Source: Desulfobacteraceae bacterium Eth-SRB1 (GTDB taxonomy: Bacteria > Desulfobacterota > Desulfobacteria > Desulfobacterales > ETH-SRB1). Taken from it: a DNA stretch of 64,000 bases. The stretch is taken from NCBI GenBank assembly GCA_004193555.1, contig RPGP01000029.1, forward strand, positions 36,093 to 100,092, read 5' to 3'. The first letter of the stretch is position 1; each line of letters begins with the position of its first letter. The notes beneath the pieces were generated by a model. The model made no database searches and had not been told where the DNA came from. It saw only the letters and a list, made by a program, of their open reading frames with translations. Below, one piece after another: positions 1,336 to 48,558 of this stretch. The translations under genes and the position numbers were made by a program.

Positions 1336-2121
1336 ATGAGTACATTAGATGATAAAGCTAAAGAGGTTTCTGCCGAAGCTGTCGATGAGGCAGAAACAGA
1401 GTCACCCACGGAAGTAAACGAAAAAAAACAGGATAATGGCCCATGGGGATACATTATCCTGTTTTTTATTATTGGGTTTGCGGCAAGTCTTGTGATCGGG
1501 TGGGGGATTTTTCCTAAGGTTCTCTATTCTCAGAAAAAGCAGCCGATAGATTTTAATCATGTTCTTCATGTTGCGGCTGTTGAGGAAGGATGTGAAAGTT
1601 GCCATTTTTTTCGTGAAGACGGCTCCTTTTCCGGAGTGCCTAAACTTGCCCAGTGCGTTGAGTGCCACGAAGAGGTTCAGGGGGAAGATCCTAACGAAGC
1701 CAAGTTTGTTGAGGAATATGTGGCAAAAGGAAGAGAGGTGCCCTGGCTTGTTTATTCGAAACAGCCTGATTGTGTTTTCTTTTCCCATATAGCCCATGTC
1801 AATATGGGTAAAATGGAGTGTGATACATGCCACGGTCATATTGGTGAATCTACGCATTCAAAGGTTTACGAAGAAAACAGGATTACAGGTTACAGCCGTG
1901 ATATCTGGGGGAAAAACATTGCCGGGCTCAAAAAGAATACATGGGATCGGATGAAAATGGATGATTGTGCTGAATGCCATGCTGAAAATAAAGCGGTTCC
2001 AAAAACCGTCGAGACACTTCCATGGCCTATAAGCTGGATGCCAAGGCCTTATGAAAAACCGGCCAGCAGCCAGGTTAGGGTACAGATAGACAAAGATGCA
2101 TGTTTTGTATGCCATAAGTAA
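1336..2121 (+). CDS. qrcA: Menaquinone reductase multiheme cytochrome c subunit QrcA
   Basis: One N-terminal TM helix; five CxxCH motifs (CESCH, CVECH, CDTCH, CAECH, CFVCH); first gene of a qrcABCD-type operon. Confidence 0.9.
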   Translation: MSTLDDKAKEVSAEAVDEAETESPTEVNEKKQDNGPWGYIILFFIIGFAASLVIGWGIFPKVLYSQKKQPIDFNHVLHVAAVEEGCESCHFFREDGSFSGVPKLAQCVECHEEVQGEDPNEAKFVEEYVAKGREVPWLVYSKQPDCVFFSHIAHVNMGKMECDTCHGHIGESTHSKVYEENRITGYSRDIWGKNIAGLKKNTWDRMKMDDCAECHAENKAVPKTVETLPWPISWMPRPYEKPASSQVRVQIDKDACFVCHK

Positions 2122-35456: not shown

Positions 35457-36239
35457 TTACTGTTCTTCCCATTTGAATTTTGCATATAGCGGAAAATGAT
35501 CTGACGGGTAGATGCCGTTAATTTTATCATGAATTACTTTGCAATCCTCTGGAACAATCCTGCCGCGATATAAAATCCAGTCAATATGATTTCCATTTTT
35601 ATTTCCCGAAAATCCATGATGTGTACCAGGGAAAGGTTCCCTGAAGGTATTTTTAAAACAGGACTTATTTGTTGAGTTTGATTTTTTATCCTGTCCGGTT
35701 AACATCTTATAACAGGGACAGGAAGGGCCTGCATTAAAGTCTCCCATAAGAATTACAGGCAGTTCAGATGGAAGGGTTGACAGCCGCTCCATAATCATCT
35801 CTGCGCTTTTAGTCTGGATATTAGCGTCGAAATCAAAGTGGGTATTAATATATATAAGCGAATGGTCATTACTTTTAAATATGCCGATTGTGCATTGTCT
35901 CGGCCAGCGGCTTTCCCTGGAACGGCTGGGTATCATTGGCGTGGGACTCAGAAAAAAATGTTCATTGTGAATACATTCCCAAGGTTTTTTATAAAAAATT
36001 ATATTGTTCTGCCAAAATGAAGGAGCAGGCTTTCTTTTTCCTATGAACCTGTATTCAGTAAGGATATTTTTGAGAAAATCTGTTTGAAAATCATTTGCTT
36101 CCTGAAATCCGATGAAATCAGCGGGATATTTATCTAAAAGGGAGGGAAAGCATTTCTTCCGGTACTCCCAGTCGTTGGGGCCGTCATCTGCCAGTCCAAA
36201 ACGAAGATTGAGAGTTATTACTGAAAAGATGTCATTCAT
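35457..36239 (-). CDS. Endonuclease/exonuclease/phosphatase family protein
   Basis: TLNLR, GFQEA, THFD, MGDFNA, IDWI, SDHFP. Confidence 0.92.
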   Translation of the reverse strand: MNDIFSVITLNLRFGLADDGPNDWEYRKKCFPSLLDKYPADFIGFQEANDFQTDFLKNILTEYRFIGKRKPAPSFWQNNIIFYKKPWECIHNEHFFLSPTPMIPSRSRESRWPRQCTIGIFKSNDHSLIYINTHFDFDANIQTKSAEMIMERLSTLPSELPVILMGDFNAGPSCPCYKMLTGQDKKSNSTNKSCFKNTFREPFPGTHHGFSGNKNGNHIDWILYRGRIVPEDCKVIHDKINGIYPSDHFPLYAKFKWEEQ

Positions 36240-36392: not shown

Positions 36393-37355
36393 TTACAGAT
36401 CCAATGGGCTTCGAACACCTCGCCCCCCTTTATTCAAAACATGAGTGTATATCATAGTAGTACTGACATCTTTATGGCCCAGAAGCTCTTGAATCGTCCG
36501 AATATCATAACCGTCCTCTAACAAATGTGTTGCAAAGCTGTGGCGAAACACATGGCTGCTTACCGTTTTTGTGACTCCTGAAATCCGAGCGGCTTTTTTT
36601 ATTGCCTTACTTAGACTATCCAGATGAATATGATGGCGTCTTTTAATACCGGAACGAGGGTCAACAGACAAGGTTTTGGATGGAAAGGCATACTGCCATC
36701 CCCATTCTTAGGAAGCATTTTTATATTTCTTTGCCAGAGCATTCGGAAGATAGACTGAACCATAGCCTTGAGACAAATCCTTTTCATGCAGCTTCTTGAC
36801 ATATTTTAGATGTTCTTTTAACGCAAGTTTAGCATCTTCCGGAAGCATTGTAACCCGGTCTTTTTGACCTTTGCCATTGCGAACTACAATCTGGTTCATC
36901 TCAAAATCTATATCTTTAACCCGCAATCTTACGCATTCAATCCCCCGAAGACCACATCCATAAAGAAGTTTTACTATCAATTGAAATATACCTGTGATGG
37001 AATTGATAATTTCCATAGTTTCATCAAATGTCAAAACAGTCGGAAGACGTTGAGGCTTTTTCGCTCGAAGCGCATCAATATTTTTAAATACATCTTTATT
37101 TAGAACATTTTTATATAAAAACAGTAATGCGCTGAAAGCCTGGTTTTGTGTTGAAGCAGCTACATTACCTTTGACAGCCAAATCGGTGAGAAATGCCTCT
37201 ATCTCTTTTTTGCCCATATCTTTTGGATGCCGCTTATTGTGAAAATAAATATATCGTTTTATCCATGAGACATATGCTTCTTCCGTCCTTATGGAGTAAT
37301 GTTTTAAACGAATCTTATTCCGTACGATGTCTAAAAGTTTCGGCTGCTGGTTCAT
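36393..37355 (-). pseudogene. intI: Integron integrase with an in-frame stop at 36708-36710
   Basis: [39 protein letters not shown], plus the integron-specific insert YLPNALAKKY...EWGWQY. The two ORFs are in the same frame, separated by TAA. Confidence 0.93.
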
Positions 37356-37699
37356 GGTATAATAACTTGATTTTAGAATAATTATGAAGTATAGGTTTAG
37401 AGAATTTTCTTCCATATTTGTACTATTTTTCTGGATTTTGCAACAAATAAAAGTTTATAAAGATATTTTTCTGAATATAACATTATATCTTTTTTTATTA
37501 AGAAATAATTATTAATTTTATTATAGAAATATTATTTGCGAAGGTTACCTAACAGAAAATATATTTTATATTTTTCAATAGATAGATTAATACACTTGAA
37601 ATGAATATAGATGTTAAAATACCTTTAAAGAAATCTAACATCCGGTATTTTAACATAATTTACAACTATTCAAGATAATTTAACTTTATTAACGTTATT

Positions 37700-37730
37700 T
37701 AGAATATTTTCGTAATAATAATTGTTATCT
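37700..37730 (+). other. attI recombination point (G|TTATCT at 37724)
   Basis: GTTATCT is the exact complement of AGATAAC, the R'' of the first attC; it lies just upstream of the first cassette ORF in an AT-rich region divergent from intI. Confidence 0.75.
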
Positions 37731-38434: not shown

Positions 38435-38562
38435 AGATAACAACCGCTTGCACTCTGACCGGCGGGGTCGTGCGGCTTTACAAAGTTTTCGGTATGCGAA
38501 ATAACGCACCATTAAACAGACCTCAGGTTTGCTCCGCCGTCAGGTGAAGCGGGGCGTTCGGT
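38435..38562 (+). other. attC site 1
   Basis: R'' AGATAAC; L'' CTT[G]CAC[T]CTGAC[C]GGCGG pairs with CCGCCGTCAGGTGAAG; R' GTTCGGT. Confidence 0.9.
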
Positions 38563-38588
38563 GTAATAAAAAAGGAAATTACAAGTCA

Positions 38589-39245
38589 ATGACCAAAACG
38601 AACTTAACAATTGAACTTCTTCAGACAGAAGCCAATAAATTTGCTACAGTTGAATCTTCTCACGATGAGCCAAGTTTGTTTGGTGTAACAGACGGCAAGG
38701 CGGTTGGGACATACTTAGAACATAAATTTCAAAAATATCTGCATGAAAATTATGTATATATTGAAGGCTCATCCGCTAAAGGCATTGATTTCCCTGAACT
38801 CGGGGTTGATCTAAAAGTAACAAGCATTAAACAGCCACAGTCATCATGCCCTTTTAAATACGCAAAACAAAAAATATACGGCCTTGGATACGCATTGCTC
38901 GTTTTTGTTTATGAGAAAATTGATAAGAATAAACAAAAAACAGGCAGATTAAATATACATCACACTGTTTTTGTCGAGAAACATCGAACGGCGGATTTCC
39001 AAACAACTTCAGGGCTGAGAAAAATCATCGAGAACAATGGCAATCAAGATGATATTATAGCTTTCTTTGAAGAGCGTTTACTTCCAGTCGATGAGATCCA
39101 AGCACAAGAACTGGCCGAAGAAATATTACAAAAGCCGCCGGAACTTGGCTATTTGACGATATCAAACGCCCTACAGTGGAGGTTGCAATATAGTCGGGTA
39201 ATTCAAGAAGCCGGCAATATTGAAGGTATAAATAAGGTTTACTGA
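38589..39245 (+). CDS. Cassette 2: putative type II restriction endonuclease
   Basis: IDFP..GVDLKVTS resembles a PD-(D/E)xK motif; stop overlaps the MTase start (TGATG). Confidence 0.7.
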   Translation: MTKTNLTIELLQTEANKFATVESSHDEPSLFGVTDGKAVGTYLEHKFQKYLHENYVYIEGSSAKGIDFPELGVDLKVTSIKQPQSSCPFKYAKQKIYGLGYALLVFVYEKIDKNKQKTGRLNIHHTVFVEKHRTADFQTTSGLRKIIENNGNQDDIIAFFEERLLPVDEIQAQELAEEILQKPPELGYLTISNALQWRLQYSRVIQEAGNIEGINKVY

Positions 39246-40774
39246 TGACGAAAAAAAAGAAAATAGAATTTGGTGATTTCCAAACACCAATTGAACTTAC
39301 CGATAATATATCAAAATTTATTAAAACCATTTTCCCCACACCAAACATTATTATCGAGCCAACATGTGGCTTAGGGAGTTTCGTTAAATCCTGTAAATCT
39401 ATTTGGGGAACAGATTGCTCTTATTATGGGTTCGATGTAAATCCTCAATATATTGAAAAATGTAATACGAACATTAATGACCGAGGTAATTGCCACTTTG
39501 AAGTGGCAAATTTTTTCCAGAAAAACTGGAAGGATCTGTTTCTTACTTACAAAAAATCTAAAGTTTTAGTAGTCGGAAATCCTCCGTGGGTTACGAATGC
39601 GGCTTTGGGTGTTCTCAACAGTAGCAATTTGCCTCAAAAATCTAACTTTCAGGGTTTAGGTGGTTTTGCAGCAAAAACAGGAAAAGCAAATTTCGACATA
39701 GCAGAATGGATGCTAATAAAATTAATTGAAAGCTTAAAGGGATGTAACGCATGCATAGCAATGTTATGTAAAACAGCAACTGCTAGAAAAGTTTTAAAAC
39801 ACTTTTGGATTAATAATAGCCAAATTAATAATAGTTTTATTCATTTAATTGATGCTAAACAGTATTTTAACGTATCTGTTGATGCTTGCTTATTTGTCAC
39901 TTTCGTAAATTCTAAAGATAAATCTAAAGACGCATATATTTATAATGATTTGTCTTTTAGAAATGAAGTAACTCATTTAGGTATATATGCTAATGAATTA
40001 ATAGCAAATATTGATGATTTTGAGAAGTATCGTGATGTAGATGGTATTGATTACTATAAATGGCGTTCTGGAATTAAGCATGATGCTTCTAGGGTAATGG
40101 AGTTAACAAAGGATAATGATAAATTTAAAAACGGTTTCGGAGAATACGTTGAGATAGAGAGTGAATATCTATATCCGCTTTTAAAATCATCAGATCTTGG
40201 CAATAATAGACTTACACCTCGAAAATATGTGATTGTTACTCAAAAGACCGTAGGAGAAAATACTATAGTAATAAAAAAAACTGCACCGAAAACATGGGCA
40301 TATCTGGAACAGTATTCTTCTATTTTGGATAGCAGAAAAAGTATTATTTATAAGAATCGTCCACGATTTTCTGTTTTCGGTATAGGTGATTATAGTTTTA
40401 CTTCATGGAAGGTTGCGATTTCTGGTCTTTATAAAGGGATTCATTTCTGTGCAATTGGGCAGTATGATAAAAAACCGATTATGGTAGATGATACTTGTTA
40501 TTTTATCCCATGTAGTTCAAAAGCTGAAGCAATACTTTTTGCTCAACAACTAAATTCTGAACCTTGCATGAAATTTCTTAAATCTTTAATATTTTTTGAT
40601 GCCAAGAGGCCAATTAATATAGATATTTTAAGAAGGATTGATTTTAAAAAACTTTCTGAAATAAATGAAAAAGAGGATGAAGTTTTAAAATTTTTGACTT
40701 ATGCCCAAGCTCCATTAACTCAACAACTCTCGTTGGTTTTTGAAAAAACGGAAGAATACCGAACAATCGGATGA
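39245..40774 (+). CDS. Cassette 2: N6-adenine DNA methyltransferase (gamma class)
   Basis: Motif I IEPTCGLGSF, motif IV GNPPW. Confidence 0.88.
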   Translation: MTKKKKIEFGDFQTPIELTDNISKFIKTIFPTPNIIIEPTCGLGSFVKSCKSIWGTDCSYYGFDVNPQYIEKCNTNINDRGNCHFEVANFFQKNWKDLFLTYKKSKVLVVGNPPWVTNAALGVLNSSNLPQKSNFQGLGGFAAKTGKANFDIAEWMLIKLIESLKGCNACIAMLCKTATARKVLKHFWINNSQINNSFIHLIDAKQYFNVSVDACLFVTFVNSKDKSKDAYIYNDLSFRNEVTHLGIYANELIANIDDFEKYRDVDGIDYYKWRSGIKHDASRVMELTKDNDKFKNGFGEYVEIESEYLYPLLKSSDLGNNRLTPRKYVIVTQKTVGENTIVIKKTAPKTWAYLEQYSSILDSRKSIIYKNRPRFSVFGIGDYSFTSWKVAISGLYKGIHFCAIGQYDKKPIMVDDTCYFIPCSSKAEAILFAQQLNSEPCMKFLKSLIFFDAKRPINIDILRRIDFKKLSEINEKEDEVLKFLTYAQAPLTQQLSLVFEKTEEYRTIG

Positions 40775-40830
40775 ACTCTGACTGAAAAAGCCTGGCCGTT
40801 TTTTGGTTTCTACAAATTTTGTTGTTTATC
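40758..40830 (+). other. attC site 2, left half (interrupted by IS21)
   Basis: R'' ACCGAAC is the complement of GTTCGGT at the start of cassette 2; L'' GGATGAACTCTGA; ends abruptly at TGTCAA. Confidence 0.85.
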
Positions 40831-40955
40831 TGTCAATGGACAATAATTTTGACCCACTACCGGACAATAAAACTGACCCACCCCCTGCACTTAGTTTAAA
40901 TTGATTTTTTGTTTGAGCCGATAGCTTTCACCCCCCATCATAAAAATATGTGAAC
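40831..40955 (-). mobile_element. IS21-family terminal region (probable right end)
   Basis: TGTCAATGGACAATAATTTTGACCCACTACCGGACAATAAAACTGACCCACC: TG start and tandem transposase-binding repeats. Confidence 0.75.
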
Positions 40956-42295
40956 CAAATGGCATTACCAAAGGCAGCCTGGATTAATAAACCATCACCG
41001 AGATAAAGAGAAGTGATTCGGTGATACACTAAATACTGATGGAGGTGTCTCATTTTCATTGACACATTCCGCATTACCTTTAATGGTTCTTAACCGTCAT
41101 ATTGAAATAATCATCAAGTGCATAATGTGCAAAGATATTTGGCTATCGGACTACGAACGCTTAGTAGCCTCCTTCATCACTTACCGTTAATTCTCCATTA
41201 CTGAGAATACCTGCCTTAAACATCCTTCGGATATATCTTAGGAAGCGTTTATCTTGTATCTTGCTGGACAATTGTTCCATCAGTAGTTCATGGTCAATTG
41301 TTCTAAAATAGTTTGACAAGTCAAGATCAATAACTTTCCTCACTGATTGGCTGTATAAATGTCTTCGAAGTTCTTTTAAAGCATCATGACACCCCAATTT
41401 TGGTCTAAGTCCATATGAGCTATTCCAAAATAAAGGTTCATAGATAGCTTCAAGTATTTTCTGCACTCCTTTCTGGACAATTTTATCTTCAAAATTGCCT
41501 ATTCCCAATGGTCTTGTAAGCACATTTCTTCCTTCTTTTAGAATTAGTATCTCACCAAGAATAAAGGGAATATGCAGGGGACATTGTTTTCAACTTTTTC
41601 AGTAGAGCATCGAGATTCTCCTCCAGATTTTCACCATACTTTTCTTTTGTCATACCATCAATACCAACCGCTGCTTTTCCTTTGAGCGACTGATACCAAT
41701 CCAGCAAATTCTCTTTATTGAAATGATGCATTAATTGATTAAATACCATTTCAGGATTATCTGCTGATAATTTACTTATTATTGCAAATTTTGTTTCCAT
41801 AATTACCGATATTCTGCGCTACTATCGTGTCGCTGCAATATCAATTATAACCTGGGCCTTCCTCCACCGGCGTTACCCGGTTTCAACAGTACTATGAGTC
41901 CTCCCCGACCTATTATTCGTCTCAATTTCCTTGCTTATTAGGCTTTGTAATTGATACTCCATCCATGGAGGAAACAGTAAGGTCTCCACGTTTATAAAAT
42001 AGCTTTGTTTACATGCCACGATCCTCGGGAGGTGCCATAACGTCTACCATTTGGCGTTGAGGATTTATGGTGTTGTTTGCCTTCTGACGCCGCGAGCGAA
42101 ATGAAAGCACCTCAAATGACAAAATTAACGGAACTCAATCGCTTCAACATATGTTTCGGCCCCACCTAAACTCTGCAATGCTGCAGCACAATGGCTTGTT
42201 ACCAGACGCTGCACAAGACTCGATAATCGATGTGCCGGGTCAAAGCACTTTCGATGTATTCACTTTCAGATGCCAGCTGGCACTTCGTGGCGCAC
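40955..42295 (-). repeat. Indel-rich inverted copy of 45754-47100 (group II intron 5' part, RT fragments and IS3 end)
   Basis: Same GTGCGCCACGAAGTG start, same RT peptide (frameshifted), same IS3 junction. Confidence 0.9.
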
Positions 42296-42315
42296 AGCGG
42301 TTTTTTGCGTCGGCT

Positions 42316-43180
42316 TCCGGGTAAAGGTACCGGTTACCCGGCGCCCTCCCCACAGACCCGTACGTGAAGCTTGCCCTCATACGGTTCCTCGATTCAGGCC
42401 CTTTTTACCGAGCCGTCAACCAATCAGGCGACACCCCGATTGGCGCATAACTTTGATGCCCATAGGCAAATCAAATATTATTGTGGACTATTCTGGGTAG
42501 CGGTAATGGGTGCGTTCTGCGCAAGTCTTCGAACAAGACGTTGCCAGTGTGACTGCGGCGGCTTAGCCACCTCCGCCACGCCCTCTCGGGATGTTCGAAC
42601 ACGACTTCCAGAGCCTTGTAATTACCACAAACTCCGTAGTACTGGTAAAAACCCCTTAACTTACTCCAGAGCACCTTGTACTGTTCTTTCATCGCATCAT
42701 GCCGGTTAGCCTTACACCATTGCCACAGCATCTTCATGAAACGGTGTAACCGCTTCCTCGCTGTTTTCTTCTTTATCACCCAATATCCTCTTCGAGACTT
42801 CCCCCAGTAAAATGTGAATCCAAGAAAGTCAAACGTTCCCTTTCCTTTCCGCACTACCTTTGAAGCCGGCTTCCTGAACGGAATTACCCTGGTTTTTTCC
42901 GGATGAAGGGCCAACCCATAGCGATTAAACCGCTTGGGCAATACGTCCATTATCCTTGCAGCGTCTGATTCCAGTTCACAACCTATTACGAAATCATCCG
43001 CCCAACGGATTATGAAGCATTTCCCTTTCATTCGGGGTAAAGCTTTCTTTACGACCCAGTCGTCGAGTACATAGTGGAGAAATATATTGGAAAGCACGGG
43101 CGAAATCACCCCGCCTTGGGGTGTGCCTTTCCCGGGATGAGAAAGAACTCCTTCCTCCATTACACCTGCATTCAACCATT
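42316..43180 (-). mobile_element. Group II intron A, 3' half: RT/maturase C-terminal part (ORF 42471-43175) plus domains V and VI
   Basis: GTPQGG, RWADD, LHPEKT; DV/DVI GGAACCGTATGAGGGCAAGCTTCACGTACGGGTCTGTGGG...TACCCGGA. Confidence 0.9.
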
Positions 43181-43194
43181 TGGACGCGGGCTTA

Positions 43195-44286
43195 GGGGAC
43201 GTTCTTCAGTTCATAAGTTTGTATCATCAATGAGTAAATATTGATGTTCTTTTGCGATTTTTTCACCCCGTTTTACAGACAAACTCACGGCTGGTTCAGA
43301 TAATTTCAGCTTACGTGAAAGTTCCGACATCCTCATTCCCAATTCCCTGACGGCCCAATAGCACAGCAAACTTCTTGCCTGAACTATGTGAGGATATTTT
43401 CCTTTTATCCACAAATCTTTGGCTTCAAGCCCCAATAGATGAGAAACCCGCCGGACAACCTTGTCAAGATCAAACCCCATGGCCTGAAGAGAATATTTTT
43501 TATCCAGTTTGTCTTGAGCAGCTTTAAGGACTGTATTGACAAAATCACCATCACCCAAAATACGCTCATCACCTTTTTGATAAACTCCGGCCCTTCGCAT
43601 TGATTTTGCTTCTGACCATCCACCTATGCTGCGTATTAAACCTCCACCAGTCAGATCAGTTCTTTTTCCGTCAGGAATTCCTTTCTTTACATAAGATCGA
43701 TATCGCCGCCTCGCAACAGAAACCTTTGTATCGAATAAACACAGGACAATCAAGGGGAATAGGGTACATTCTTCACATTGTAAGTTGCTAATATATAGAA
43801 AGAGTGACATAAAAAAATATGCCAAGAAAAGTCAGGATAGATGCATCTGGTGCTCTTCACCACATTATTGCCAGAGGCATTGATAGAAATACAATCTTTC
43901 AGGATGATTTTGACCGAAAGAACTTTATAGACAGTTTGGAAAGATGTCCATGACGCTTGTGCCTGCGATTATATGACATGGCATAACCGGTCAAAAGTCG
44001 TCTCATCACTGTTGCAACAGGAGCAAGACCGGTTCTGAGCAGCAAATGGAAATGATTCGGAATCAGCGCCCAGGCATAGCAGATTGTTTTGCTTTCATTT
44101 AGAATGGCAGGCAGCCTGTCTATAAAGTTCTTTCGGTCAAAATCGTCACCAATTGCCGACATAATCAATGCCTCTGCAAGCGTAGTAATTGAGAGCACCA
44201 GAGCATCTATCCTGGCTTTCCATGGCATATTTTTCTTGTGTCACACTTTCTATATATTAGCAACTTATAATGTGAAGAACGTCCCC
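43195..44286 (-). mobile_element. Y1 (HUH) RAYT-like transposase element with 25-bp terminal inverted repeats; centre disrupted
   Basis: MP.KARIDA..., YAWALIPNHFHLLLRTG, C-terminal HTH; TIRs GGGGACGTTCTTCAnnnnATAAGTT at 43195-43219 and 44262-44286; TA on both flanks. Confidence 0.8.
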
Positions 44287-44288
44287 TA

Positions 44289-44612
44289 TACCCCCCATTG
44301 CTTATACTCAACAGCAATTAAGTATGGTGCTGTAATGATAAAATCTGGACGGATAGTTTCTTCGCCGCAAAAGGTGAGTAGCACGTTCTTAACTCCCCAT
44401 ACGCACCTTCTGCCCCTCAATAAAGTTATATTGCCTTTCAAGGCATCATATATCCAGATTCGGAAAATGTTTCCAATGGTTCCATTTCGAACTTCCGGGT
44501 TTTGGATTTAAATTGCGGGTTGCCGACAATATATTTATGAACCTCCTCAATAAATTGGAATTGGACTTTAGCTGTTTTCTTCGATTACCAAGGCCCCCTC
44601 ACCTATTTTGAG
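44289..44612 (-). pseudogene. Remnant of cassette 3 (possible PD-(D/E)xK nuclease), cut by the RAYT element
   Basis: Follows R' of attC2; frameshifted peptide ending IRPDFIITAPYLIAVEYKQW. Confidence 0.35.
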
Positions 44613-44687
44613 CTATAACAACAAGGATAACCTGATGATGAAAGCAAAACAAATATGGCTACAAAAGCAAAGAAAGATTAGGTAAGC
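44613..44687 (-). other. attC site 2, right half (displaced and inverted)
   Basis: Minus strand TCAGGTTATCC-TTGTT-GTTATAG; TCAGGTTATCC pairs with GGAT[G]AAC[T]CTGA of the left half; abuts the IS21 left end. Confidence 0.75.
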
Positions 44688-45753
44688 TGTTAGCGGTCCG
44701 TTTATAATGACGGTAGCCGAACAATAAAACTGACCCACCCTCAAACAGTGCTTAACAGGCAGCATAATAAAAAAATTATTTACCATAATTAATATGTTGT
44801 AGGAGGTTCCTCATTATTTTCAATAAGGAGGAACAGATGTGAAGAAGATTGGAATAGCCAGGTTTACATAAAGATTAAATTGCTCTATGATGATGATGGC
44901 CAGCGGGTACATTTTAGCTCCGTGCCATTGCTATCAGACTTCAGGTATCGAGGAATACAATCGAAGATACCTGCAAATGAATGAGGAAGAGATCTGCAAG
45001 ATATGTAAAGCAAGAGACGGACAGAACTCGGTAAAATATAAAATTATATTATCTCCTGCTTGAAAATATGAAGAAATTATCTGCTGTTAAAATCAAACTT
45101 AAAATAGGGATAGTTTAACTGTCTCTAACGGGTCACCAGCCAAGGCGCTACGTAAACGGAATCAGGCAAACTATAGCCATTGAGAGCAGAAACGCTATTA
45201 TGAACCTGTTATGGATATGGTTCCAGGGAGTTCAGTGCTTGGTGAATCACGGAGAAATCAAGGAGGAATGTTCCTGTTGGCGATAAATTTATCACTATCC
45301 TATTTTGTAGTATTTGTTCTCTCTTTTTACGACAAATGCTTGTATGTTGCGGCCTCTAATCGGCCAATTAATACAGAAGGCATGTTTATCAAGGATGCAT
45401 GATGAGGGCCTTTTAGATACTTTGACGGTGTTTGTGAAATTATTATTCTATGACCAGACTAAGCTTGTTACAATCACCAGAAGGAGTTCAGAGGAGGAGT
45501 CTGGTTCAATGAAAGTTTTTTATCAATATGCTTCTGCGGCCCTTGGATATATACGAGGTATGTGAAGGATATTATGACCGAAACAAGAACCCAAGGGTCG
45601 AGTCCGGTGTAAAATATGTAAGAACGATTTTTTTTCTATGGCGACACATTTGATTCTTTTTGATCAGCTCAAGCACGAATCTTTGCAGTTAGATTGGATA
45701 CGGTTGCAAACAAAAAGCGTATTCACGGCTTACGAAAAAGCCGGAAGAACTTT
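44688..45753 (+). mobile_element. istA: IS21 left end and frameshifted 5' part of istA
   Basis: TGTTAGCGG...ACAATAAAACTGACCCACC; peptides RAIAIRLQVSRNTI, RYYEPVMDMVPG, YDQTKLV, ESGVKYV across frameshifts. Confidence 0.75.
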
Positions 45754-46988
45754 GTGCGCCACGAAGTGTAAAATAACTGGCATCTGAAAGTGAATGCATC
45801 GAAAGTGCAACCCAGCACATCGATTATCGAGTCTTGTGCGGTGTCTGGTAACAGGCACTGTAAAGCGTAGACAGAGAGTTTGTAGGCCGGAAACATATGT
45901 TGAAGTGATTGAGTTCCGTTAATTTTGTCATTTGAGGATGGCTGATGGCTTCGCGGCGTCAGAAAGCAATATCATAGCCGACACTAAATGGGGAGGAAGC
46001 TATGACACCTTCGGGATCGTAGAGCCTGGCATGCAAACAAAGCTATTTTATAAACGTGGGAGACCCTATTGTTTCTCCAAGGATAGAGTATCAATTACAA
46101 GCCTAATAAGCGAGAAAGTTGAGACGAATAATAGGGAGTCAGAGAACTCATAGTACTGAAGAAGCCGGGTAATGCCGGTGGAGGGAAGGGGTTCAGGTTA
46201 AATCGCTATTGTGAAGGACACATAATAGATAACACAGAATATCGGTGATTATGAGAACAAAATTTGCAATAATAAATAGATTATCAGCAGAAAATCCTGA
46301 AATGGTGTTTAATCAATTGATGCACCACTTCAATAAAGAAAATTTGCTGAATTGGTATCAATCGCTCAAAAGAAAAGCAGCGGTCGGTAGTGATGGTATG
46401 ACAAAAGAAGAATATGGTAAAAATCTTGAAGAGAATCTTGATACTCTACTGGAAAAGCTGAAGACAATGTCCTATGTTCCCGGTTCTGTAAAGCAAATAT
46501 TAATTCCTAAAGAAGGAAGTAAAGGAGCTACAAGACCATTGGGAATAGGCAATTTTGAAGATAAAATTGTCCAGAAAGGAGTGCAGAAAATACTTGAAGC
46601 TATCTATGAACCTTTATTTTGGAATAGCTCATATGGATTTAGACCAAAATTGGGGTGTCATGATGCTTTAAAAGAACTTCGAAGACATTTATACAGCCAA
46701 TCAGTGAGGAAAGTTATTGATCTTGACTTGTCAAACTATTTTGGAACAATTGACCATGAACTACTGATGGAACAATTGTCAAACAAGATACAAGATAAAC
46801 GCTTCCTAAGATATATCCGAAGGATGTTTAAGGCAGGTATTCTCAGTAATGGAGAATTAACGGTAAGTGATGAAGGAGTGCCACAAGGTAGTGTCTGTAG
46901 TCCGATATTAGCCAATATCTTTGCACATTATGCACTTGATGATTGGTTTAATATGACGGTTAAGAACCATTGTAAAGGTAATGCGGAA
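45754..46988 (+). mobile_element. Group II intron B, 5' half with RT N-terminal part (ORF from about 46251), truncated by IS3
   Basis: GTGCG 5' end; AAVGSDG, RPLGI, SYGFRP, DLSNYF, GVPQGS; stops before the YADD motif. Confidence 0.9.
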
Positions 46989-48558
46989 TGTGTCAATGAA
47001 AATGAGACACCTCCATCAGTAATTTAGTGTATCACCGAATCACTTTCATTCGGTGATGGTTTATTAATCCAGGCTGCCTTTGGTAATGCCATCGGTTTTG
47101 GAACCTTTCCCTTGAACCGGTTTGGATGTTTTTCAAAGGCTATTTTCAATACCTTTTCACGCTCTTTGATAATTTGTTCAGCCCGTCCATAATGTACATC
47201 TTCCGGTGTGACAAAACCAATACCTGAATGGTAGTGTCCTGTATTGTACCAAAGGAAGAAGCCATGACAAAAGAATCTGGCATCTTCAATAGCGCCAAAC
47301 CGCTCTGGAAACTCAGGCCGATATTTCATGGTCTTGAACTGCGATTCTGAATAAGGGTTGTCATTGCTGACGTAGGGTCTTGAATGACTTTTGGTAATCC
47401 CTAAATCAGCCAATAACAATGCCTTAAAATAATAAAGATGTTAATTGGCCTCTTGGCATCAAAAAATATTAAAATTTAAGAAATTTCATGCAAGGTTCAA
47501 ATTTAGTTGTTGAGGCAAAGTATTGCTTCAGCTTTTTGAACTACATGGGATAAAATAACAAGTATCATCTACCACTTAATCGGTTTTTATCATACTGCCC
47601 AATTGCACAAAATAAGATCGCTTTATAAAGACCAGAAATCGCAACCTTCCATGAAGTAAAACTATAATCCACCTATACCGAAACAGAAATCGTGGACCGA
47701 TTCTTATAAAAATAATACTTTTTCTGCTATCAAATAAGAATACTGTTCCAGATATGCCCATGTTTTAGTTTTTTTTTATTACTATAGTATTTTCTCCTAC
47801 AGTCTTTTTGAGTAGCTGTCATATTTTCGAGGGTGTAAGTCTATTATTGCCAAGATCTGATGATTTTAAAGCGGATATAGATATTCACTCTCTATCTCTT
47901 GTATTCTCGAAACCGTTTTTAAATTTATCATTATCCTTGTTAACTCCATTACCCGCAGAAGCATCGTAGCAATTTCCAGAACGCCATTTATAGTAATCAA
48001 TACCATCTACATCCGCGATACTTCTCCAAAATCATCAATATTTGCTATTAATTCATTAGCATATATACCTAAATGAGTTACTTCATTTCTAAAGACAAAT
48101 CATTATAAATATATGCGTCTTTAGATTTATCTTTAAATTTACAGAAGTGACAAATAAAGCAAGCATCAACAGATACGTTACAATACTGTTTAGCATCAGT
48201 GCCGTGAATAAAACTATTATTAATTTGTGTAATCAAAGTGTTTTAAAACTTTCACAGCAGTTGCTGTACATAAAGCATTGCTATGCATGCGTTACATCCT
48301 TTAAACTTTTCAATTAATTTTATTGGCATCCATTCTGCTATGTCGAAATTTGCTTTTCTGTTTGCTGCAAAACCTACACCTAAACACAAAGAGAGTTAGA
48401 TTTTGAGGGCAAATTGCTGTTGAGAACACACACCCAATTTGTTGCTTTGCTAACATGGGTTGCTATTGATGCATTCTTTAACATTTTATTTCTCCTTCCC
48501 GCCCTCTATAATATACACTAAATTATAGGTTGGGAAGTGTCTCACTTATATTGGCACA
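46989..48558 (-). mobile_element. IS3-family element, 1570 bp, interior overwritten
   Basis: 26-bp IRs TGTGTCAATGAAAATGAGACACCTCC (46989) and TGTGCCAATATAAGTGAGACACTTCC (48558); transposase C-terminus at 47024-47419 (SNDNPYSES, WYN...H); RBS and ATG at 48484. Confidence 0.85.
47425..48437 (-). repeat. Indel-rich inverted copy of the MTase gene segment 39605-40630
   Basis: Colinear reverse-complement match across about 1 kb with many small indels. Confidence 0.92.

Follow-up and report, generated by a model that had tools for sequence, protein, structure and literature searches.

The 64,000-nt stretch of DNA analysed here (the window; positions 36,093 to 100,092 of contig RPGP01000029.1, assembly GCA_004193555.1) comes from Desulfobacteraceae bacterium Eth-SRB1 and contains a small chromosomal integron with two cassettes: an integron integrase gene (intI) with one stop codon, the attI site, cassette 1 and cassette 2, the latter encoding a type II restriction–modification (RM) system. 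The attC site at the end of the RM cassette (attC2) is divided by an insertion sequence (IS) of the IS21 family, and in the deposited contig its right half lies inverted, 3.8 kb away from the left one. We consider it probable that an IS21 element split attC2 of the RM cassette and that the apparent inversion is an assembly artefact, a mirror-image gap fill. Positions are those of the window, except for those prefixed C1, C28, C29, C37 or C40, which refer to contigs of the same assembly.

The integron and its restriction–modification cassette

The intI gene (36393–37415, minus strand) carries one in-frame TAA. Reading through this stop gives a product of 320 aa that reaches 463 bits on TIGR02249, for which the cut-off is 265, and that contains the IntI-specific insertion, including DPRSG..RRHH. 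The TAA falls within the IntI-specific patch (NAS*EWGWQY) and the surrounding sequence is clean; the gene is either a recent pseudogene or affected by a base error. The integron already looks decayed.

The attI crossover box G|TTATCT (37724–37730, plus strand), which sets the start of cassette 1 at 37725, is exactly complementary to the R'' box AGATAAC (38435–38441) of the first attC site. This site, attC1 (38435–38562, plus strand), has the L'' box GCTT(G)CAC(T)CTGAC, the L' box GTCAGGTGAAGC and the R' box G|TTCGGT, and folds into a long imperfect hairpin (z = -4.0). Cassette 2 (38529–40774, plus strand) consists of genes for a type II restriction endonuclease (38529–39245) and an N6-adenine methylase (39245–40774), assigned by matches to NF052465 (355 bits) and PF02384 (N6_Mtase). 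attC2 begins at 40758, and the stop codon of the methylase gene sits within its L'' box.

attC2 and the IS21-family element

The sequence-only reading of this DNA had described the two attC2 halves and the IS ends, and all of these elements are found in their places. The left half (40758–40830, plus strand) comprises R'' (ACCGAAC, 40758–40764), the spacer AATC, L'' (GGATGAACTCTGA, 40769–40781) and half of the central region; it runs ACCGAAC-AATC-GGATGAACTCTGA...GTTGTTTATC to 40830, where the flank GTTTATC ends, the final five bases of which (TTATC) are the left copy of a target duplication. The right half (44616–44679, minus strand) holds the rest of the central region, L' (TCAGGTTATCC), the spacer TTGTT and R' (G|TTATAG), which reaches 44613, the minus strand from 44635 to 44613 reading TCAGGTTATCC-TTGTT-GTTATAG. 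In the joined site, GGAT(G)AAC(T)CTGA(C)TGAAAAAGC pairs with GCTTTTTCATCAGGTTATCC; the bases bulged on the plus strand are G, T and C, the bulges that attC1 shows as well (GCTT(G)CAC(T)CTGAC(C)GG), and for G and T this had been noticed earlier.

attC2 is an attC site, as had been claimed. It closes a cassette at the 3' side, and the array to which this cassette belongs begins at attI beside intI. Its R'' box is the exact complement of the start of its own cassette, the attC1 R' box GTTCGGT (38556–38562), and its L''/L' stem, imperfect like the bulged stem of attC1, has the extrahelical bases on the bottom-strand 3' arm. That the repeat behind the methylase gene is instead some other hairpin repeat, of the repetitive extragenic palindrome (REP) or miniature inverted-repeat transposable element (MITE) kind, would agree with the presence of a RAYT-like gene close by and with bulged bases that differ from the canonical T and G, but we regard this as extremely improbable. 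The array from attI beside an IntI gene and the complementarity of R'' to its own cassette start both argue against it. Among the 21 relatives of attC2 described below, AAC of R'' and GTT of R' are constant and the outer bases of both boxes differ from copy to copy, and copies of the family stand in arrays with cassette-like spacing by other intI genes. Furthermore, a match to group II intron domains D1–D4 lies ~100 bp past the R'' end of one paralog, on the opposite strand, which is the position of group IIC-attC introns (PMC3001079), and a bottom-strand A...C pair such as that of attC2 is known from a natural attC, that of dfrA1 (PMC3053210).

The two flanks of the IS are halves of a single attC. 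A profile was built from uninterrupted family members only (21 sequences from 11 genomes), leaving out the window halves. Its positions 3–75 match the left half (40758–40830; E 7.6e-24) and its positions 76–137 the right half (44679–44616, minus strand; E 7.3e-6). As these matches abut exactly, the two breakpoints coincide at profile position 75|76, and the joint match of the two halves is far above chance. In BLAST searches, 40763–40830 and 44622–44678 match neighbouring stretches of an uninterrupted copy at C40:1008913-1009036, the right half being 88% identical to C40:1008913-1008967; a second intact paralog lies at C1:415099-415228. In JAYEFW010000001, a related metagenome-assembled genome (MAG) of the Thermodesulfobacteriota, a methylase gene 97% identical to that of cassette 2 is followed by an intact attC2 and then by a different cassette, and the window left half is colinear with this ortholog. 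When the window halves are joined, the sequence can be aligned over its whole length with all 21 intact members, the left half showing no indels relative to the family and the right half three. The stem pairs are preserved in all 21, with double changes at two pairs only, a degree of conservation too high for covariation to be usable. When a strict regular expression was used to look for sites like attC1 and attC2, it retrieved two only, and nhmmer was used instead. attC1 matches the attC2-family profile weakly (E 0.055), and this profile detected no further attC downstream of attC2 within the window.

The element between the halves was identified by means of the best preserved copy in the genome (C1:1066203-1068678, 2476 bp), which served as reference. 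Its IstA and IstB score 229 bits on NF033546 (cut-off 160) and 238 bits on NF038214 (cut-off 200), and since both pass the NCBIfam equivalog cut-offs the assignment to IS21 is correct. The ends of the element (TGTCAATGGACAATAA... and TGTTAGCGGTCATTTATAA...) share a 33-bp inverted match, begin with TGT and contain repeats of the motif GACAATAA...TGACCCAC, and five full copies are flanked by exact 5-bp target duplications (CGAAA, CTTAA, GTAAT, TGAAC and GAAAG). It thus has the IstA and IstB proteins, the inverted ends, the subterminal repeats and the short duplication of an IS21-family member. A duplication of 5 bp is within the usual range for this family.

Of the window copy, no more than 124 bp of one end and ~1 kb of the opposite end can be seen. 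The end at 40831, which begins TGTCAATGG... (TGTCAATGGACAATAATTTTGACCCAC...), is the right end of the element (40831–40954, minus strand, IS positions 2476 to 2353); it is clean and 98–99% identical to eight other copies, and the clean stretch ends after 124 bp, the same as at every other copy. The end at 44688, which begins TGTTAGCGG... (TGTTAGCGGTCC...), is the left end with the 5' part of istA (44688–45753, plus strand, IS positions 1 to 1029); it is noisy, with 83.6% identity and 109 gaps. Both ends read rightwards and, as assembled, are therefore not the two ends of a normal IS.

Between the right half of attC2 and the IS end lie eight bases, GCTTACCT (44680–44687, minus strand), which contain TTACC. 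The flanks of the IS had been described as resembling a degraded target duplication. This is partly right: the element makes exact 5-bp duplications elsewhere, and here TTATC stands on the left and TTACC on the right, the latter within the eight bases and in sequence of raw-read quality. TTACC is the expected 5-bp duplication, in its right copy, seen through raw-read-level errors.

The flanks of the other IS21 copies in the genome show no attC features, and none of these copies sits in an attC. The element is thus not one that inserts recurrently and site-specifically into attC, and its hit in attC2 looks accidental rather than targeted because the other copies lie outside attC sites.

The mirror pattern between 39606 and 48432

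The region 39606–48432 is a mosaic of clean and raw-read-quality sequence that together make up an 8.8-kb pseudo-palindrome; a stretch was called clean if it formed an intact open reading frame (ORF) or was 96–100% identical without gaps to other copies. Three inverted matches have an axis in common near 44024 (coordinate sums 88038–88058): 39606–40620 with 48432–47438, 40959–42296 with 47092–45753 (86% identity, 62 gaps) and 43754–43934 with 44294–44116 (82% identity). Every pair combines a clean arm with one of raw-read quality; the arms are 82–89% identical, with more indel events than mismatches. The stretches between the matches are non-homologous and of equal length, 338/345 bp where both are clean and 1457/1458 bp where both are noisy.

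Such a pattern is what would be expected of a mosaic of the true sequence with one raw read over 39606–48432 that had been reverse-complemented in place. Two true patches facing each other across the axis would be unrelated and clean, two filler patches would be unrelated, noisy and swapped, and a filler patch facing a true one would show as an inverted repeat. The first putative filler (40955–43740) mirrors 44309–47094 as its reverse complement in place and overwrites the interior of the IS21 element; in the corresponding inverted match, the right-arm copy is the one that is 96% identical without gaps to C1:346889-348118. It is followed by a clean patch (43741–43934, plus strand) with the upstream region and the first 39 codons of a RAYT-like (Y1/HUH) transposase gene recognized by tblastn, 99% identical to C1:1099086-1099280. 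The second putative filler (43935–45753) mirrors 42296–44114 and contains the attC2 right half, the IS21 left end and the 5' part of istA. The next clean patch (45754–47430, plus strand) holds the 5' 1.2 kb of a group II intron (RF02005, 121 bits at 45787–46026), cut from 46984 by an IS3-family element (NF033516), and these two parts match other copies at 96% and 100% identity with no gaps. The third putative filler (47431–48436) mirrors the methylase gene (39606–40620) and overwrites the interior of the IS3 element; this noisy methylase copy is 89% identical to the clean one, with 48 indel events versus 31 mismatches per kb, and has no ORF of more than 62 aa.

The inverted position of the right attC2 half, 3.8 kb away, had been taken as biology. 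This is not upheld: the inverted stretches are noisy mirror copies of the same interval, and the inversion is most likely an artefact because these stretches have raw-read quality and because similar defects occur at other IS21 and IS3 copies. We judge it unlikely that the assembled arrangement is real, that is, that an inversion or inverted duplication followed the IS21 insertion and gave a true 8.8-kb palindrome-like locus, for which IS21-mediated rearrangement or recombination between inverted repeats could be the route. The deposited contig does read so, the region is rich in mobile elements, and inverted intron and IS copies able to drive an inversion are present. However, recombination leaves unexplained why three unrelated inverted repeats share one axis within a few bases, why the non-homologous patches are of equal length and why clean sequence in one arm always faces raw-read quality in the other. 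A real inversion would also need a 124-bp IS21 end joined to the last 113 bp of an IS3 element and a methylase copy with 48 indels per kb, and another IS21 copy, with intact ends and a duplication, has unique flank DNA inside it (see below).

Two simpler candidates were rejected. Inversion via the inverted intron copies leaves the shared axis and the noise pattern unexplained, and a simple fold-back (palindromic) read does not fit equal-length patches that are non-homologous or clean patches that are in place.

Un-mirroring the noisy stretches yields a plain full-length IS21 in attC2 with a TTATC duplication, and three lengths agree with expectation. The IS left terminus moves from 44688 to 43361, which makes the IS span from 40831 2531 bp, compared with 2476 bp in the reference; the slot hidden under clean sequence is 1338 bp and fits the missing IS positions 2352–1030 (1323 bp). 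An intact IS21 of ~2.5 kb, as the sequence-only reading had suggested, fits this span. That reading had also put the original order as RM cassette, attC2 with its IS21, a third cassette, RAYT and introns, and the un-mirrored reconstruction agrees with this order, with a short spacer between attC2 and RAYT. The RAYT-like gene becomes colinear, with the clean N-terminus (43819–43934) followed by the un-mirrored centre, a hidden slot and the C-terminal part; the slot is 194 bp, compared with 190 bp in the colinear paralogs C40:1274498-1273494 and C29:271264-272273. Likewise, the interior slot of the IS3 element is 1580 bp in the window and 1542 bp between the same landmarks in C40, and it is this slot that the noisy methylase copy fills.

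The un-mirrored RAYT-like gene encodes ~335 aa, like the same two paralogs. What appears in the contig as a RAYT-like transposase with terminal inverted repeats (43195–44286) has as its ends the clean 5' region and the noisy mirror copy of it. The junction 45753|45754, where istA position 1029 is joined to the intron 5' end GTGCG, is a breakpoint of the mosaic and not an intron insertion into istA, and the un-mirrored read puts the 3' end of a second intron ~20 nt upstream of the intron at 45754.

Two separate IS21 insertions into different attC copies, joined by rearrangement or misassembly, would be conceivable in a genome where both the attC family and the IS are multicopy, and the two ends are of unequal quality (98% versus 78% identity to the reference). 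We nevertheless hold such a double event to be highly improbable. Both breakpoints fall at profile position 75|76, with a TTATC/TTACC remnant, and no other IS21 copy sits in an attC. In the mirrored read, which carries the methylase gene too, the distance between the left and right junctions is one IS length (2531 bp); the gap in quality is accounted for by the difference between clean contig and raw read. Both IS ends belong to one IS21-family element of this genome, and a single insertion split attC2, as had been proposed.

Defects of the same kind occur elsewhere in the assembly. The IS21 copy at C1:1186289-1188734 has clean ends and an exact GTAAT duplication, and between these ends stand its own unique left flank and IS positions 1–1901 as a noisy copy in reverse. 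Indel-rich inverted repeats with close arms sit at many repeat elements, including IS3 interiors. They were found at C1:418462-438581, C1:1185942-1188610, C1:1092811-1094799, C28:8269-11269, C37:1600-4571, C40:155823-157388, C40:796735-803803, C40:869607-885237 and C29:193216-197201, the last of which corresponds to window coordinates 157124–161109, beyond the window. In C37, the nested repeats share one axis and enclose unrelated patches of equal length (819/818 bp). This recurrence looks like a systematic error of the assembly in which gaps were filled from the wrong strand. That the mirror patches are real, with IS21 (and IS3) copies recurrently seeding in-place inversions or palindromic duplications of several kb and in this case scrambling the integron, appears very unlikely.

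The sequence of events that we favour is as follows. attC2 (~137 nt), which ends the RM cassette, was hit once by a 2.5-kb IS21 element encoding the IstA transposase and the IstB ATPase; the insertion fell in the AT-rich middle of the attC hairpin and left TTATC duplicated. The real chromosome would most likely carry a complete, minus-oriented IS21 between the attC2 halves, flanked by TTATC, in the order methylase, attC2 left half, IS21, attC2 right half, ~320 bp, RAYT-like gene, intron fragments and IS3. We infer that three gaps in repeats (40955–43740, 43935–45753 and 47431–48436) were filled with one raw long read in the wrong strand; each filler would thereby mirror the stretch across the read midpoint at ~44024, producing the pseudo-palindrome and the apparent inversion of attC.

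Several observations count against this reconstruction. The central 1.3 kb of the window IS21 is not represented, and the completeness of the element is read from spacing. The right junction is known from noisy sequence only and shows eight extra bases rather than five, the duplication being inexact as read. The evidence for the artefact is internal to the assembled sequence, and two metagenome scans yielded no clean junction between the IS21 left end and the attC2 right half (0 matches in the first; in the second, 27 contigs with the IS end and 0 with the attC half). The joined attC2 hairpin has weak thermodynamic support (z -0.7 to -1.9), because the site is AT-rich. Finally, attC2 does not show the common T-N6-G extrahelical pattern, its bottom strand reading (G)TCAG(A)GTT(C) with bulged C, A and G. 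We regard this as a variant and not as grounds for exclusion, because some IntIs accept the A...C pair, which occurs naturally in the dfrA1 attC (PMC3053210); variation at the bulged positions is also seen among further attCs of the genome.

Predicted consequences for the cassette, and relatives of attC2

The insertion of IS21 into attC2 would plausibly fix the RM cassette in the integron, as had been suggested. Recombination of attC through a folded single strand is established (PMC3053210, PMC5027507). With the hairpin arms 2.5 kb apart, the bottom strand should not fold into an IntI substrate and, also because there is no further attC in the window, the RM cassette should no longer be excisable. 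The biology is routine: the recombination site of a defence (RM) cassette has probably been put out of action by a non-specific IS, which would hold this cassette in place in a small integron.

Mobile elements inside attC are well known, and an IS21-family element in this position is a new instance of an ordinary kind. IS1111-attC elements and group IIC-attC introns are similar in that a mobile element lies within a cassette attC and the site is separated or altered (PMC3001079, PMC11187229). They target attC specifically, whereas the IS21 element described here does not; its other copies have 5-bp duplications at unrelated AT-rich sites and attC2 looks like a chance hit. In its IstA DDE transposase, IstB AAA+ helper and repeated subterminal end sites, the element shows nothing unusual for the IS21 family.

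The practical result concerns the assembly, which contains mirror-image filler of raw-read quality within repeats at many places; consequently, the split genes, 'terminal inverted repeats', tandem introns and palindromes found there should not be taken as biology before they are checked against reads. The defect resembles known errors of long-read and hybrid assembly (wrong-strand gap fills and fold-back chimeras) in its palindrome-like layout, its raw-read error levels and its location within repeat interiors, and differs from a simple fold-back in that clean in-place patches alternate with mirrored ones.

A side result is a highly conserved attC family that is common to integrons of several genera of Thermodesulfobacteriota. 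Sites of the attC2 type are ~90% identical over ~130 nt and occur in dozens of copies in MAGs from at least four genera of one family of this phylum, a spread that suggests a cassette pool shared across those genera. The family resembles the Vibrio cholerae repeats of sedentary chromosomal integrons in being long (~137 nt), conserved (~90%) and furnished with three L-box bulges, and also in having many copies per genome and being common to related genomes. It differs from them in its bottom-strand bulges (C, A and G as opposed to G, T and T) and in spanning at least four genera of Thermodesulfobacteriota MAGs.

In MAG contig JAIVWD010000220 (1960–2270), the methylase gene of cassette 2 recurs, and attC2 breaks off behind it after its first 20 nt (through GGATGAACT), giving way to unrelated sequence with a small ORF; this points either to another rearrangement at the same attC or to a chimeric short-read contig. 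One paralogous attC of the Eth-SRB1 genome seems to have a group II intron directly next to it, at C40:1009037 (PMC3001079). In this paralog (1495–1636, minus strand, of C40:1007408-1010536), the R'' box is replaced by sequence on the opposite strand that starts with GTGTACGCCCGG, after which comes a match to group II intron domains D1–D4 (RF02001, 1732–1850, plus strand); the neighbour is probably an intron of the group IIC-attC type inserted in the bottom strand. The same neighbour is found next to the attC at C40:838014-838199.

The genome contains at least four further integron integrase genes, which are full-length and 50–54% identical to that at 36393–37415 (C1:450452-451372, C1:3163-4119, C40:866303-867211 and C28:753-1688), with fragments at C40:1162556-1163211. 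Arrays of attC-like hairpins lie near these genes, for example at C1:414490-417630 and, at contig ends, at C40:1326463-1328691 and C1:136-2547.

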